Shown here in pieces: positions 10,413 to 56,871 of a stretch of 64,000 nucleotides of DNA. Source of the DNA: Octopus vulgaris. Its lineage: Eukaryota. Position 1 is the first letter of the stretch, and each line of letters begins with the position of its first letter. The stretch lies in contig OX597821.1 in the NCBI GenBank assembly GCA_951406725.2, positions 105,152,001-105,216,000 on the forward strand, in the 5' to 3' direction. The position numbers were made by a program, and so were the translations under genes. Below the pieces are notes generated by a model that was given only the letters and a program-made list of their open reading frames with translations, was not told where the DNA came from and did not search any database.

Positions 10413-10539
10413 ACACTCGAGCGTCTATAGGAGAAGTTTTGAAATTATGTCAATATACGCGTCTAAATTTCCCATGTACGAGTGAACTCTATACATATTC
10501 AGGTATACACACACACATACACAAACACACACACACACA

Positions 10540-10728
10540 TGATAGATCGTTAGGTCCTACACGCATTTTTTCTCTCCTTGTTTTTTTCTGTGTATCTTTC
10601 TGTCGAAGAGCGTAAGCTCGAAGCGTAAAAGACTTTTTCTATTTCTATTCCTGAGCGCTATACTAATACATTTGTTTGTCTGTACTCCACCTGCCTTCGT
10701 CTTTTGTTTATTTTCGTAAACTTTCCCG

Positions 10729-31291: not shown

Positions 31292-31336
31292 GTTTCTCTG
31301 AAGAGGTCACAGATGTGTGACGAAATATTCCTGGAC
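31292..31336 (+). ncRNA. Hammerhead-like motif, core intact, stem I weak
   Basis: CTGAAGA-G-GTCACA gatg TGTGAC-GAAA-TATTC. Confidence 0.55.
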
Positions 31337-33177: not shown

Positions 33178-33194
33178 TAGACATATAGATGGGG

Positions 33195-33375
33195 AGGGGA
33201 GAGTTCACACAAGCACAAAAGACGAAGACAGGTGGTGTAGACAACAAACTGATGTATTAGTATAACGCTCGGAAAGCGAAAAAGTGTTTAACGTTTCGAG
33301 CCTACGCTCCTCAACAGAAAGAGACAAGGAGAGAAAATAAAGAATGTGTAGTGGCTAGCGATCTATCATGGCGAA
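33195..33375 (-). mobile_element. Second copy of the ~190-bp hammerhead-bearing repeat (motif at 33285-33322)
   Basis: TCTTT-CTGTTGA-G-GAGC gtag GCTC-GAAA-CGTT-AAACA; homologous to 10540-10732. Confidence 0.8.
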
Positions 33376-33385
33376 TATATATATG

Positions 33386-34100
33386 TACGTCGTCTGATAA
33401 ATGAGTATTCGAACTGTTACTATAGTGACGACGCTAAAGCACGGACAGTTAACCCGCTTGGTAAATATTGACCTTGAAATCTGTTGTGCATGCTCACTAA
33501 ATATTTAACATTCTAGTTCACTTTTGCTATTCACAGGTCGTGATCGTCGCACTGGCCGTGCCAGAGAAAGTTAAGCAGAGAATCTGCATCATATTTTGCC
33601 ATAAGCTTGGTGAAACCCATTTTCTTTTTAAAATTTCGACTTTCTCGACATAATCAAGGAGATATTATGCAACTGAAACCCGAGTGAAAATTTGTTTAAC
33701 TCAAAGCAGTTTTGGCACAAATGTGGCAGAAACGCCACTCATACACAAATCATCAGTGACAATAGACTGAACTGAATTTTAATTAATCTGCGCGTTCTCT
33801 GATAACTCACAAGTTGTGATTCCACGATTTCCTCTCGCACCTGCACGCACATCTGCGATATGTTTCTCATTTGTGCAGGTTGCCGGTCTCTCAGAGCATT
33901 TTCAATATCGATATCTTTTCGGCCCTCTCATATACGTGTAAAACTCACGTACGCTTTTGTGCTGCTGGCACACTCCTCTCCATACAATTTCTGCAATTTT
34001 TGCGTAGATCACTATGCCGATATTATCATTAAAACTTTCAGTATCATGGTAAAATTCGACGATCACACACTACACACCTAACTTACAAGCACTGCTGTGA
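33386..34100. mobile_element. Two mariner 5' remnants joined in opposite orientation
   Basis: Plus strand: TIR-like tacgtcgtctgataaa and VKQRICIIFCHKLGET (to ~33620). Minus strand 33620-34060: EGRKDI...IVTDDLCMSGVSATFVPKLL. Confidence 0.75.
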
Positions 34101-34126
34101 ACAGCGGAGGCTATAAGGAAGAGGCT

Positions 34127-34220
34127 CCTTATCTTTCCTGATGAGAAGATGGCATAATGCACCATTTATTCCTTCGGAATTAAAAGTATGCCGTCTTCGA
34201 AACATGTGTCGTGAGTAAGG
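34127..34220 (+). ncRNA. Type I hammerhead ribozyme
   Basis: CTGATGA 34138-34144; 12-bp stem II gaagatggcata/tatgccgtcttc; GAAA 34199-34202; CATGTG-TC; predicted cut after C34210; imperfect stem I ccttatctttc/gtgagtaagg. Confidence 0.85.
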
Positions 34221-34579
34221 AAATTTTGTTAAAATCTTCGTTCGACTCCATTCTTTCATTTATTTATATAAAAAAAACACACAAATTTTCACACAAGAAC
34301 CCGGAGTTTCTACCCTTGACAGGTCGCTTCAACCGTGTTTTCTGACGTGAATTTGCTACCCGGGTATCGGTTAAACGAATTTTCCATGCTAAGATATATA
34401 TATATATATATATACATATAAACATATATATATACATATATAATGTGCGTGTGTGTGACGTACATACATATCGTGTTTTCATTCATTATAAATATTTCAT
34501 GTATCTCCAAGCAAGTAAATTGGTTTTATTATTCATAACGCCACTTCTGTATAACGTCGTTGTCGTGGAAATACAATAA

Positions 34580-38321: not shown

Positions 38322-38395
38322 ATCGTACTGATGAGTCTACGGACGAAGGATTACGTAAGTAATTTATTCGGTGATAGACGAAACCGGTATACGAT
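38322..38395 (+). ncRNA. Type I hammerhead ribozyme
   Basis: Stem I ATCGTA/TACGAT; CTGATGA 38328-38334; stem II GTCTA/TAGAC with long extension; GAAA 38380-38383; ACCGGT palindrome; predicted cut after A38389 (GUA). Confidence 0.92.
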
Positions 38396-39858: not shown

Positions 39859-40159
39859 GTGAATAATTTTTGTAGTTTTTGGTGGGTCCAATATTCCTAC
39901 TTTCAACCTGTGCATATTTTGAAGTGACATCTTATACTGGCTGGACGTATTTGGTGTGTACTTCTAGCATGATAGATTGTGTGCCATTAAATATAATTGT
40001 ATTCTGTAGAATTATATATCGCCATACGGGAATTTTTTCTTAAATGATTCTTTATTATATGCTGGCCACATATATATATATATATATATATATCTACATA
40101 ATTGCAAACGCACACAGACACGCATATATTCACACACATATCCCCTTCTCTCAATCTAG

Positions 40160-40285
40160 AAAATCCACTTACAAGGATTTGGTTGGCGCAAAGCTATAGT
40201 AGGAGACACTTGACGATGATGCTACGCAGTGGGACAGAAGACGGAGCCAAGTGGCTGGGAATGAAGCCTCTTATCACACAGTGAC
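40160..40285 (-). mobile_element. SINE head fragment
   Basis: aaatccacttacaagg...acgcagtgggac matches 10294-10365. Confidence 0.7.
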
Positions 40286-40304
40286 ACATATATAAAAATA
40301 AAAT

Positions 40305-40356
40305 GAATAATAATAATAACAACACCACCACCACCAACAACAACAACAACAACAAC

Positions 40357-40409
<53 letters not shown>

Positions 40410-40990
40410 GGAGAAGTAGAAGAAGATGATGGAGATGAAGAAGAAGAAGAAGGAGGAGGAGAAGGAAGAGGAGGTGGAGAAGAAAAGAAGAAGAAGAAGA
40501 AGGAGAAGAAAAAGAAGGAGAAGAAAAAGATGGAGAAGTTGAAGAAGAAGATGGACAAGAAGAAGAAGAAGAAGAAGATGGAGAAGAAGGAGAAGAAGAA
40601 GAAGAAGAAGAAGAAGAAGGAGAGGAAGAAGTAGAAGAAGAAGTTGAAGAAGAAGATGGACAAGAAGAAGAAGAAGATGGAGAAGAAGTAGAATAATAAT
40701 AAGAAGAAGTGGAAGAAGAAGAAGACGGACAAGAAGAAGAAGAAGTTGGAGAAGTAGAATAATAATAAGAAAAAGAAGAAGAGGAAGAAGTGGAATAGGT
40801 TGAAGAAGAAGAAATTGAAGAAGAAGATGGACAAGAAGAAGAAGAAGATGGAGAAGAAGTAGAATAATAATAAGAAGAAGAAGTGGAAGAAGAAGAAGAC
40901 GGACAAGAAGAAGAAGAAGTTGGAGAAGTAGAATAATAATAAGAAAAAGAAGAAGAGGAATAAGTGGAATAGGTTGAAGAAGAAGAAATT

Positions 40991-41034
<44 letters not shown>

Positions 41035-41359
41035 AGAAGAAGATGGAGAAGAAGAAGAAGAAGAAGAGGAAGAAGAAGAGGTAGAAGAAGAAGATGGAGA
41101 AGAAGAAGAAGAAGAAGAAGAAGGAGAAGATGGAGAAGAAGAAGAAGAAGATCGAGAAGAAGAATATGGAGAAGAAGAAGACGAAGAAGAAGAAGAACAA
41201 GAAGAACAAGAAAAACAAAAAAAGAAGAAGAAGAAGAAGAAGAAGAAGAAGATGGAGATGAAGAAGACGAAGAAGAAGAAGAAGAAGAAGAAGACGAAAA
41301 AGAAGAAGACGAAAAAGAAGAAGAAGAAGAAAAGAAGAAGAAAAACAAAAAAGAAGAAG

Positions 41360-41390
<31 letters not shown>

Positions 41391-41565
41391 TGAAGAAGAA
41401 GATGGACAAGAAGAAGAAGAAGATGGAGAAGAAGTAGAATAATAATAAGAAGAAGAAGTGGAAGAAGAAGAAGACGGACAAGAAGAAGAAGAAGTTGGAG
41501 AAGTAGAATAATAATAAGAAAAAGAAGAAGAGGAATAAGTGGAATAGGTTGAAGAAGAAGAAATT

Positions 41566-41609
<44 letters not shown>

Positions 41610-41622
41610 AGAAGAAGATGGA

Positions 41623-41654
<32 letters not shown>

Positions 41655-41996
41655 AGAGGTAGAAGAAGAAGATGGAGAAGAAGAAGAAGAAGAAGAAGAA
41701 GAAGAAGATGGAGAAGAAGAAGAAGAAGGAGAAGAAGAAGATGGAGAAGAAGAAGACGAAGAAGAAGAAGAACAAGAAGAACAAGAAAAACAAAAAAGAA
41801 GAAGAAGAAGAAGAAGAAGATGGAGAAGAAGAAGACGAAGAAGAAGAAGAAGAAGAAGAAGAAGAAGACGAAAAAGAAGAAGACGAAAAAGAAGAAGAAG
41901 AAGAAAAGAAGAAGAAAAACAAAAAAAAAGAAGAAGAAGAAGAAGAGGAAGAAGAAGAAGAAAAGAAGAAGAAGAAGAAGAAGAAGAAGAAGAGGA
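40305..41996. repeat. Complex (GAA)n-based array with higher-order repeats
   Basis: (CAC)/(CAA)/(TAA) run, then ~1.6 kb of nearly all-purine GAA variants; ~180-bp and ~575-bp periodicities. Confidence 0.95.
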
Positions 41997-42557
41997 AATC
42001 TGAAACTATAAATGGAGTTGCAAAACTCGAAACTGAGTCGGTAGGAGCAGCTAGTGTCGTGACTGCACAAACTGGAACACCTATTCAGATATAGATTGAA
42101 TTAATGATGTACACAGGAATGGCAATGGTGAGACAGAAATGAATCATATGGGAGTTTCATTCTCCATATAAATATAGAAAAGTAATAAAATTATTTTCGA
42201 TACAAAATAATTAGTAATTGCATGAATATACGGAAATACAAATGAATCAAATTCGCAAGGCTGTGACAAGCGGGACGAATATCGTATCAATTGTCAAATA
42301 TAATATGAATCAAGTCTTACCTTTGAGAATTAAGTGATAGATTTCTTCATTAGTTCAAGATATGTAGAGAAACGAAGATAATTTACACGAAATTAAACTT
42401 TTAAATTATGCAGGAATAACTCTATTTTGGCATGAAGACTAGTTTTCACTAGTAAATTCTTAGTGCAACACAAATCTTCAACTTTTCCAATAATTTAGAC
42501 TTTCCCTAAGTAAGAATTCATATTGCGCTGTGTTGATTTCAAAATGATACATAAAAA

Positions 42558-53164: not shown

Positions 53165-55135
53165 AGAAATTAACACATTACAACCCACAGAAACACTAAA
53201 ATACTTATCCTCCTTACACCAAATTCATGGAAAGGGTCTCACTAAACATGAAATAGACTATTTATCCAATTATAAATACATTCCTAGTCTATTCTACGGA
53301 TTACTCAAAATACATAAAAATCTACCCATTTGTGAAGACTGCAAAGTCTCTACAAGCCTAAGCATTAATGTCCCTCCCTCTACTGACCTCAAACTGAGAC
53401 CTATCATAGCTGGCTCTTCTTCTGAAACCCACCGTTTGAGCAACTTCCTCGACATATTACTCAAACCTCTTTTAAAATATGTGAAAAGCTCTATAAGGGA
53501 TGACCTAGACATGCTGAAACATCTCCTGAACACAGTAAAGGAAGGAACCCTGCTGGTATCTTTCGATGTGGTGAATTTATACACCAATATCCCACACGAC
53601 TATGGTATAGAAGCAATCACATTCTGGCTAGAAAAATACCCAGAAGAGATCCCAGGACGCATTAACCACAGTTTTATAATTGAAGCACTCAAATTCATCC
53701 TGCTGAACAATCATTTCATGTTCGATACAACTTACTATCGACAAAAATGTGGAATTGCAATGTGAACCAGAGCTGCTCCAGTGATTGCAAACCTTGTAAT
53801 GGGTTAGCTCGAACTCAAGTTATACCAATCATCAATAGAAAAATATGGTGCCTCTTTTAATTGCTACTTAAAGGAGAACTGGAAGAGATATTTGGATGAT
53901 TTCTTCATACTTTGGAAACACAGCATGGATAAACTCCTTGATTTCAAAATAACGCTCAACAACATACACAGCAATATACAATTTACTATGGAACACAACA
54001 GTATACAACTCCCTTTTCTAGACATCTTAATTAAAAAAGTTAACATCCACATAGAAACAGACATCTTTTATAAACCCACAGATTCTAAACAATACCTATT
54101 ACTTAACTCCTGCCACCCCAAACACATAAAAATCAAGATGCCCTTTAACCTAGCGAAATGAATCTGCACCATAGTTGCGGATACATATACTCGAGAACAA
54201 AGACTCCTTGATCTTAGATCTATACTAACTAAAATACATTACCCAATCTCATTAATAAATGAAGGCATTAAAATAGCTATGGAAATAGATATACAAATGT
54301 TAAGGAAAACTAGCCGAAATACTAAACCAGACTTGAAAATACTCCCATACATTTCCACACATAACCCTAGAAACAACGAAGCCTTCAACATCATCACCCA
54401 AAATCTTCCCATCCTCACAGCAGACAAAACATTGAACGAAATTTTAAGCTCATACAAAATTATATAAAAGGCAAAATGAAACCGAAATCACTGAAAAAAA
54501 TAGTAACCAACGCAAAACTGTATCCACTAACAACAGAGCCAAAAATGAAAAAATGTGGACGTACTAACTGTGGAACATGCCCCCACCTTCTGGAGAGTTC
54601 AAAATTTCACTTCAAACAAGGAGAAATATATAAGATCAAATCGAATTTCACCTGCGCCCCAATAAATGTTATCTATGTCATGATATGCGTAGGATGTGGT
54701 AAACTTTATATAGGACAAACAGGAATTTCACTCCGTCAAGGAACCACCATTCACAAAGAGCAAATCCGCCACCCACAATACAGACAGTTAAAAGTGAGTG
54801 AGCCCAGGAATCTTAATCCCAATTTCCAAATCTTCCCCTTCTTTCAATGTTCACAGAACACCACAATGCAACAAAGGTTGAATAAAGAGGCATTTTTCAT
54901 CAATAAATATCTCCCCCAACTAAATATGAACACACAACTCAATACCGAACACTCCTAACCCTTCCATTTAAACCACTAACCCCTATACACTCCCTACACC
55001 ATTCACATCTCTAAATCCAGAACTACTTACCTCCCTTACAAATAATCTTTTTTCTCAGGAACTATTAGACCTGACACCGTGTATTAGCCGGTGTTTTCAA
55101 AGCGATGTATTTCACTTTGCGGAAACCATGATGCG
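53165..55135 (+). mobile_element. Penelope-like element, near-complete RT plus GIY-YIG, with stops and frameshifts
   Basis: FYGLLKIHK, LRPII, SFDVVNLYTNIP, GIAM*T..AP..ANL.M, WKRYLDD, LPFLD, then CGTC and NVIYVMICVGCGKLYIGQTG. Confidence 0.95.
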
Positions 55136-55392: not shown

Positions 55393-56871
55393 AGTATATA
55401 TGTATGTATGTGTGTTTATGTGTATGTGTATGTGTGGATTAGGCTAGTATTTATCACTGAATTTTCCTTCTATGTGCAAAAGTAGTTTGTATATGCATAT
55501 ATGGTTGTACCTGTATGTACACGAATAATTTGTTACGTATAAAATTATGTATGACATAATTCTGTACGTGTAGATAGCCATATACATACGATGTCAATCT
55601 ATTTACCTTTTACATTTTAATATTTTTATAATTTTTATAAATATAAGAAATAAAAGCACAATTTTTTCCCGTTATTTGTTATCTCTCCGAAACTACACAT
55701 AACTCTAAATATTTTTTAGCTTTTTTCCACAATTATACAAAACTCTTTTCGTTATTATTATATATAATTTTTCTATACCGCTCCATAGATGATTATATAT
55801 GGTATAATCATCTATGGATTATAGATGATGTAATTGAAGCAGATAATATAATTGTATTTCCCCTCGTCTTCATTATTTTAATTTCTCACTTTTAATTATT
55901 ATTATTTTTTATTTTATTAACTGTCTTTTAGTATCTACCTCTTCATATATCCTTCTACCAGTTTAACTAAATTCCATATTACACTTATGCGTTTCTATAA
56001 AAATTAGACATATTATTTACGAAAAACATTTCAATTATAAATATTATAAACCAGAAATTATTTATGATTACTACTAAACACTGTTTTCTAATTAATTACA
56101 AAACCGTATTCATTATTGATGGTTGAAGTGTCTCCAGTATTTCAAAATTCTTTACGTCTTTATTTGGTTTGTCTTTTCCTTAAAATACAGCCTCACCAGT
56201 TGTTTACTACATATATAGAATTTTTAAATTAGCTCCTTTGTAGAAATCTATAGAGAGAATGTAACACTTATTAATATTATATATATACCAGCACCCAAGT
56301 GTAATCTTTTGGTGTAGTTTGAATAGACATGACTGGAGCAATAGCACATTACAAAAATGGGCACTAACAACATACTTCAGCAATTATAACGTCTTTTTAG
56401 ATTTTATGTTATTTTTTGGCTAATGACGAGTACTTTTTGACGAATCAGATTATTAAAATTAATTTATTGTGTTTCTGTATGAAACGATCGAATACATGCA
56501 TGAAAACCTATCATCCATATTAACATCTAATCTAATATATATATATAGTATATAGTCAATTCAAATTATTTAAACAAAAGAATATTAAATAAGATTAAAA
56601 AACGAGAGAACGTTCACAATGGGTGTATAAATTGGTTCAATTTCTGGTAATAGAGCGTACACTTGACCGATGACCGATAAAATTGGTACCAGTCTTTACC
56701 AAAATAATATATACATGTGCCCATATTTTCCGACTAAAATTCTTCAGCGCATTTCCTTGAACGACAAGAGAATTTTCGGATCTTAGGAAGGAAAATCTTG
56801 GAAATAGAACATGTTAAACTAGGACTAACTAAAAGTCATATGAGAATCATGGACATGCAAAAACAATAATG

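Follow-up and report, generated by a model that had tools for sequence, protein, structure and literature searches.

The motif at 34127-34220 raises two questions: whether it is a genuine hammerhead, and what kind of repeat carries it at the edge of a mariner-like remnant. It lies in a window (the whole stretch of DNA analysed) of 64 kb, which is AT-rich and rich in TA microsatellites and retroelement debris. The type I hammerhead core reads as complete (C3 U4 G5 A6 N7 G8 A9, G12 A13 A14, A15.1-U16.1, H17). The sequence-only reading had named CUGAUGA, a 12-bp stem II, an inner hairpin, GAAA, a quasi-palindrome and a GUC triplet, and all of these were found in place. G34145 comes straight after A34144, leaving no additional nucleotide ahead of stem II, which contains 12 pairs between 34145-34156 and 34187-34198, one of them U-G and the first of them G10.1-C11.1. 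The inner hairpin pairs 34168-34172 with 34176-34180 in both sequence and fold, and the helix II insert keeps the core halves 54 nt apart. GAAA occupies 34199-34202 and GUC occupies 34208-34210, and ACAUGUGU at 34202-34209 pairs with itself, two G-U pairs included. Stem I of this copy is interrupted in sequence and fold by a U.U mismatch at 34136/34212 and a bulged nucleotide at 34132, as had also been noted from the letters. The parts of the motif are as follows.

34126-34137, + strand: 5' arm of stem I, with 34126-34130/31 as its upper and 34133-34137 as its lower part, from sequence and pairing tables; no variant of at least 5% listed.
34138-34144, + strand: catalytic core C3-A9, CUGAUGA, from sequence; no variant listed across all four runs.
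34145-34156, + strand: stem II 5' arm, 12 nt, pair probability 0.64-1.0; the variants at 34150 and 34151 keep pairing.
34157-34163, + strand: 7-nt side of the internal loop of helix II, facing 34185-34186 in the family (fold with family-majority letters); no listed variant.
34164-34184, + strand: distal hairpin of helix II, which has 5 bp here but in most family copies reaches 8 bp, including one mismatch.
34187-34198, + strand: stem II 3' arm, from sequence and fold; A at 34192 would pair with U at 34151.
34199-34201, + strand: core G12 A13 A14, from sequence; no variant listed.
34202-34209, + strand: stem III, 2 bp with a 4-nt loop as a monomer, an 8-bp self-complementary helix as a dimer.
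34210, + strand: C17, with the cut predicted at 34210/34211 from the hammerhead consensus.
34211-34222, + strand: stem I 3' arm; this copy is unlike nearly all others at 34212, 34219 and 34221, where 97.6-100% of depth has another letter.

A type I descriptor gave only two matches in the 64-kb window, the motif with its core at 34138 (stem II of 12 bp) and a second one at 38328 (5 bp). When the same descriptor was run on 300 block-shuffled windows, there were 12 matches with a stem II of at least 4 bp, 5 at 5 bp or more, and none at 6 bp or more. A chance match in AT-rich DNA would agree with the hammerhead fold not being the lowest-energy fold of this copy and with the Rfam search, which returned no match at the gathering score and none at E<=10 for 34127-34220. 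This blank speaks against membership in the Rfam models but not against the fold itself, and the long helix II insert probably costs the motif its Rfam score. We consider a chance match refuted, its probability being negligible, because no shuffled window reached a stem II of 6 bp and because family-majority letters repair stem I. The 34138 motif is a confirmed type I hammerhead-type motif and a predicted ribozyme.

Homologous copies were obtained from contigs of four public runs from four studies (X2, X4, X8 and X10; organism labels A, B and C). Parts of 33390-34392 are carried by 20 of the 24 listed runs, and four were aligned over 33950-34392 (443 of the 1003 bases searched) at 80% likeness, a cut-off that favours conserved copies. 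Aligned contigs were found in all four runs (1855, 1124, 1090 and 223 per run). Relative to the contig with the unique junction, the summed depth over stem II is ~1,700x in X4 and ~6,800x in X8, ratios that are not copy numbers. The hammerhead-bearing family is highly repeated. No RNA run is listed among those carrying parts of the region; X10 is RNA by guess only, and its depth profile resembles that of DNA runs. One X10 contig matches 34119-34218 with a single difference, reaching 8 letters past the cut site, so a subfamily near this copy exists.

Across the four runs, 40 variable places (at least 5%) were listed, including 14 within 34120-34225 and none at the 13 core positions; a core without variants would be expected by chance about one time in seven, by our estimate. 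In stem II, U to C at 34150 turns a U-G pair into C-G. G to U at 34151 together with C to A at 34192 would turn a G-C pair into U-A, the phase of the two being unseen in contigs. Their shares agree in X8 (74/77%) and X10 (43/52%) and disagree in X2 (24/88%) and X4 (37/84%), with depth differing strongly between both places, and the depth of A34192 does not exceed that of U34151 in any of the four runs. In stem I, 99.8-100% of depth has A at 34212; this letter closes the mismatch and leaves U private to this copy, so the mismatch reflects decay of this copy and is not a feature of the family. G to A at 34213 keeps its stem I pair, and G to A at 34215 (1-9%) breaks one. Other letters at 34219 and 34221 (97.6-100% of depth) give a 5-bp upper stem I behind a 2x2 loop. 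The sole listed variant of stem III, A at 34206 (0-12%), makes the palindrome perfect.

C at 34164 and G at 34184, found in 83-97% of depth in all four runs, extend the inner hairpin, and helix II is therefore a rod with a 7x2 internal loop and not a branch. The branched loop proposed by the sequence-only reading gives way to one internal loop and one distal hairpin, whose single stem is lengthened by these two family letters; its description of a near-canonical hammerhead holds, as the type I core is complete and homologous copies keep the core and mostly keep the helices. Of the 9 pairs touched by variation, 8 are preserved or newly formed (P 0.0006-0.01 against a simple letter-draw null, a partly circular figure, as the helices were partly fitted afterwards). 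With helices drawn from the window copy alone, the count is 4 of 5 (P 0.03-0.08). Such pair-keeping variation appears supportive of the fold but is not proof of covariation. For the 7-nt side of the internal loop (34157-34163), no partner of at least 6 nt was found within 34060-34400. A pseudoknot from this loop was considered and rejected, its sole partner being 5 nt within stem III, which we take as chance.

The neighbourhood of the motif is divided as follows.

33620-34108, - strand: 5' remnant of a mariner-like transposase with part of its leader, by six-frame reading; cut off at 34108.
34113-34119, + strand: 7-nt inverted match to 34126-34132 at the junction, a predicted trap for the stem I 5' arm.
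34120-34270, + strand: hammerhead-bearing repeat fragment, cut at its 5' side and ending in a decayed TA tract; loose ends on both sides.
34271-34392, no strand assigned: second highly repeated segment; some other copies have it attached to the hammerhead part and extend past 34390.

The segment at 33620-34108 is one that we take to be mariner-like from a by-eye reading of motifs; Pfam gave no mariner identity for any of four fragments or two read-throughs, and PDB gave none (0). Other copies of this repeat have different sequence behind 34105/34108, in at least 20 contigs of X2 and at least 13 + 20 of X4, and copies of the hammerhead repeat have T-rich sequence before 34119/34120 in at least 16, 12 and 1 contigs of X4, X8 and X10, respectively. 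Contig depth drops sharply at 34100-34114. As the two families continue differently at 34108/34120, two repeats are joined here, and the hammerhead lies outside the mariner-like remnant. The motif had been described as sitting right beside a mariner remnant; it does adjoin a mariner-like one, but a tie between the two repeats that meet at 34108/34120 is not supported, and the mariner name is unconfirmed by Pfam and PDB. A contig of organism C spans the left junction, with 31 letters to its right; the locus is thus found outside a single assembly, and the junction is older than one assembly. This contig, together with the abutment itself, is what would speak for the hammerhead being part of a mariner-like transposon leader or a regulatory ribozyme kept by the host at this site. 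The different continuations of the two families and the depth collapse at 34100-34114 stand against the leader, and the changes in this copy weaken stem I, which is the opposite of selection for function. We regard both versions as largely refuted and highly improbable.

At the 3' side, the sequence behind 34270 turns into (TA)n in at least 26 contigs of X8, ~60 nt beyond the cut site, and in the decayed TA tract of the window TATAT begins 55 nt 3' of the cut site. At least one piece (among the best 32 of 4304) bridges 34270 with 31 or more letters on each side, and other copies continue beyond both 34270 and 34390; 34270 is thus not one constant end point. Different loose ends were found before 34326, 34338 and 34339, and among the loose ends listed 34271-34392 is common to several repeat families. 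The boundary reading draws on the best 24 of 318 loose ends and the best 32 of 4304 pieces. Words from the mariner-like continuation and from the downstream flank of the hammerhead family are absent from the 64-kb window, and the upstream T-rich word has nine low-complexity matches there.

Two further observations concern this neighbourhood. The segments 33387-33620 (+) and 33620-34108 (-), labelled by eye, are two mariner-like 5' remnants lying face to face with no spacer. Also, 33204-33216, at the end of the PLE-type repeat of 33180-33370, and 34288-34300, where the 34271-34392 segment starts, are nearly identical over 13 nt (92%), each adjoining a TA tract; the likeness may mean that the second repeated segment is an inverted tail of a Penelope-like element (PLE), or it may be chance.

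Our preferred reading, with a probability of about 0.6, is that the locus is a decayed, 5'-cut copy of a repeat with an extended helix II hammerhead, which would be a PLE 3' tail or a non-coding derivative of one and would cleave after 34210 only as a dimer. The core, the helices, the repeat status, the origin apart from the mariner-like neighbour and the (TA)n ends of other copies were observed directly, and by analogy the family is likely to belong to the PLE terminal repeats. In the accessible text of PMC4209133, PLE hammerheads have a palindromic loop 3, G10.1-C11.1 and a larger helix II, occur mostly as single dispersed motifs, and are flanked by U-rich sequence on the 5' side and AU-rich sequence on the 3' side. 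Hydra-clade PLE hammerheads in File S2 of PMC8557442, as far as that file is accessible, have AC...GT palindromic stems III near the 3' end, and those PLEs favour (TA)n. The 34138 motif is like PLE hammerheads in its type I topology, CUGANGA/GAAA core, G10.1-C11.1 pair and helix II above canonical size, and also in its short palindromic stem III, for which dimerisation is predicted to be necessary, its dispersed single copies and, in those copies that end in (TA)n, its position shortly before that end. The palindromic positions 15.2-16.2 and loop 3 are present, forming the 8-nt self-complementary stem III (-6.0 kcal/mol).

The differences are in helix II, in stem I and in the coding part. In PLE minimal hammerheads, helix II measures 7-8 bp, a nucleotide 9.1 is added and loop 3 is palindromic, and the canonical animal helix II is 4 bp (PMC4209133, accessible text). 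Unlike in these, helix II of the 34138 motif combines 12 bp with an internal loop and a distal hairpin that set the core halves 54 nt apart, stem I goes on past an internal loop of its own, and no PLE ORF is linked to the motif. Nucleotide 9.1 between A9 and G10.1 is absent, as in some Hydra-clade PLE hammerheads, and the motif is therefore not of the minimal subtype. The sequence-only reading had seen no Penelope ORF nearby, which is locally true; a broken RT + GIY-YIG element (weak matches) is nevertheless found 19 kb away in the window, and a minimal PLE-type hammerhead, one of those in the window, 0.8 kb away. In the 64-kb window, the flanks of the hammerhead family match nothing else, the broken PLE of the window included. 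When eight short family words were compared with the Naiad, Chlamys and Hydra consensi of PMC8557442, seven were absent and one generic 9-mer occurred in two unrelated Chlamys entries.

Naiad elements were considered as the carrier and rejected, as the published 3' ends of Naiad_Obim and Naiad_Ovul do not contain the 34138 hammerhead; the motif is unlike both in having no sequence match in these 3' ends. It resembles the octopus Naiads marked HHR_half_core (Naiad_Ovul and Naiad_Esco) in its apparent (TA)n preference (PMC8557442, accessible part). In the same source, octopus and squid Naiads were scored as half cores with core halves 35-50 nt apart, beyond its 7-17-nt descriptor. The 34138 motif escapes descriptors for the same reason as these half-core Naiads, its core halves being far apart. 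The tails of Naiad_Obim and Naiad_Ovul in File S5 (accessible part) contain a 6-bp stem closing a 23-nt loop right before GAAAC. These stem-loops are possibly a long-loop hammerhead-like fold or another ribozyme fold, the authors having scored a half core only (Ovul). In the accessible text of the 2026 repeat annotation of Octopus vulgaris, 30 Penelope families are given as recently active, and the terms ribozyme and hammerhead do not occur (PMC13282606).

The family may instead consist of free non-LTR retrozymes, of which this copy would be a stray cut monomer: a tandem 200-400-bp repeat with a circular RNA and no coding part of its own. The core without an extra nucleotide, the stem I of 5 bp, internal loop and 5 bp, and the 2-bp stem III fit canonical retrozyme hammerheads, and the conserved family sequence covers at least 34120-34390, continuing at both ends. 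In the accessible text of PMC7229834, the mussel has ~5000 copies in 350-390-bp repeats without the usual loop contacts. The 34138 family is like animal non-LTR retrozymes (newt/axolotl, mussel, coral) in being high-copy, non-coding and AT-rich with a canonical core and an internally looped helix I, and like axolotl Amex1 in its weak stem III and palindromic tetraloop. It differs from them in helix II, which is three times the canonical 4 bp, and in that no tandem array or circle is known for it. No tandem copy is present at this locus, no contig shows a go-back joint (at most two contigs fit two places within the 443 bases aligned), the 30-35 letters of the upstream and downstream loose ends listed do not overlap, and many copies end in (TA)n. 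We consider this reading possible, though unlikely. Retrozymes are tandem, often leave monomers and are pLTR-derived in the accessible parts of the literature (PMC7229834, PMC7761336, 10.64898/2026.07.22.740005); with monomers and a pLTR origin common among them, this alternative overlaps the reading as a PLE tail.

Another carrier would be a SINE-like repeat such as Sm-alpha, the tail of a LINE or some unclassified repeat, which we consider very unlikely. The segment 34271-34392 is common to several repeat families among the loose ends listed, and the accessible text of PMC13282606 counts 893 unclassified SINE families with recent activity in Octopus vulgaris. The (TA)n ends 55-60 nt past the cut, the 5' truncation and the palindromic stem III are PLE traits, however, and this copy, which lacks the 5' part of the repeat, shows neither a Pol III box nor a tRNA head.

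Returning to the PLE reading with cleavage as a dimer, we folded this copy and the family-majority sequence. The hammerhead fold of this copy has -23.8 kcal/mol versus -26.8 kcal/mol for the minimum-energy fold (whole-region z -2.1), with pair probabilities of at most 0.37 in the lower part of helix I and 0.64-1.0 in helix II. When the 25-nt upstream flank was added, the stem I pair probability was at most 0.17, with 34113-34119 predicted to trap the 5' arm. This trap is weaker in organisms B and C, since their junction contigs read A at 34118. The modelled folds suggest that this copy is probably a weak or silent relic, because a stem I pair is lost, no partner lies nearby and misfolding with the flank is predicted. 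With family-majority letters, all stem I pairs have probabilities of 0.83-0.98, stems I and II together 0.83-1.0, and stem III 0.01-0.02. The predicted dimer with family letters has -71.4 versus 2 x -31.2 kcal/mol, 9 kcal/mol better than two monomers; both CUGAUGA stretches are unpaired, the stem I arms are swapped and the palindromes are paired. Stem III of this dimer sits two bases off the active register, both registers having -6.0 kcal/mol.

We propose that, in a tandem transcript, two family copies would exchange stem I arms, and their two 8-nt palindromes would join as one long helix III, completing both cores. Hammerhead cleavage leaves a cyclic phosphate and a 5'-OH. In it, G12 acts as the base and the G8 2'-OH as the acid (PMC6155905, accessible text), and these residues would drive the usual cut here, freeing a unit-length element RNA that is possibly circularised. 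This RNA could then be reverse-transcribed by a PLE RT/GIY-YIG protein and inserted into (TA)n. A double-hammerhead arrangement is described for newt, viroid and PLE motifs in the accessible parts of PMC4209133, PMC6155905 and PMC6765202, and the 34138 motif is predicted, by analogy, to work like a PLE or retrozyme type I hammerhead. Excision of element RNA from tandem transcripts for reverse transcription is a hypothesis of the literature surveyed, which, in its accessible parts, offers no in vivo proof that hammerheads process PLE RNA. In the accessible text of 10.64898/2026.07.22.740005, 8 of 9 predicted frog retrozyme dimers were uncleaved in vitro.

Hammerheads are well known and very common in animal retroelement repeats, so one more copy is ordinary; the value of the 34138 family lies in its architecture: the core is of full size, helix II contains a 54-nt insert, and the family, though highly repeated, is overlooked by Rfam. 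In File S2 of PMC8557442, the stems II of PLE hammerheads measure 3-9 bp, the longest normal one being that of spike moss PLE-X1 (9 bp, loop of ~35 nt), and viral type I motifs with a 'longer' helix II have 6-8 bp (PMC13725137), in the accessible parts of both sources. The 34138 insert exceeds the spacer limits of the published PLE survey (7-17 nt, and 35-50 nt for half cores; PMC8557442, accessible part) and, in the accessible parts of the published hammerhead sets compared, is longer than any other. Pattern scans gave three metagenome matches and one viral match, none alike beyond the search words and none folding as a hammerhead, and a 19-20-nt family word had no matches in prokaryote genomes and viral contigs. 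The literature surveyed, in its accessible parts, contains no octopus or cephalopod hammerhead family like this one and no 12-bp interrupted helix II in animals.

With helix II three times the canonical length, the usual loop I/loop II contact would be impossible in its usual place. One may speculate that octopus-type genomes contain an overlooked hammerhead class of at least two unrelated families (34138 and 38328), in which helix II is a conserved 45-54-nt rod with internal loops. The conserved internal loop of this rod would replace the loop I/loop II contact by docking at the outer end of helix I, or would bind the protein of the retroelement. The family would rank among the genome's most repeated ribozymes and yet escape both Rfam and descriptors with short spacers, and some 'hammerhead-free' PLE clades may carry this form. 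We hold this idea to be decidedly unlikely as stated. If the family is active, genomic ribozyme counts in cephalopod-like genomes would be too low, and its many variants would offer a natural test of a possible control of PLE RNA processing by dimer cleavage and by the distal structure of helix II.

The second descriptor match belongs to a hammerhead at 38322-38395 (+) whose helix II, long and interrupted, separates the core halves by 45 nt; it has a perfect 6-bp stem I, a GUA triplet and no extra nucleotide. Its palindrome is ACCGGU (-8.3 kcal/mol as a dimer), and its Rfam match reaches only 20 bits (E 1.3). A 51-bp direct repeat (37956-38006/38470-38520) adjoins it and could mark a partial tandem. 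The two motifs had been called unrelated. By sequence they are distinct families, with no blastn match between them and with CUGAUGAG plus scattered AT-rich identities in common, but their architecture is shared. This common architecture without sequence similarity hints at a recurring form.

Other related features are scattered through the window. A ~200-bp repeat between microsatellites at 33180-33370 (-) contains a minimal PLE-type hammerhead with its core at 33317 (CUGUUGA, extra G, 4-bp stem II, GAAACGU), and a partial second copy lies at 10538-10591. Half of a minimal hammerhead is found at 31298-31325 (+), with CUGAAGA, an extra G, a 6-bp stem II and GAAA; its 3' side no longer fits, and a TA tract follows 56 nt later. 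The broken Penelope-like ORF is located at 53166-54958 (+), with a tail to ~56540 and a cysteine linker before the nuclease; its matches to RVT_1 (E 0.011) and GIY-YIG (E 0.001) are both below the curated cut-off. At ~56420-56495, a degenerate hammerhead-like stretch without a hammerhead fold lies 46 nt before a TA tract. Finally, 40190-42100 is a purine-rich simple repeat of GAA type of ~1.9 kb, with a GC skew of 0.70 and an AT skew of 0.70 over 40001-42000.
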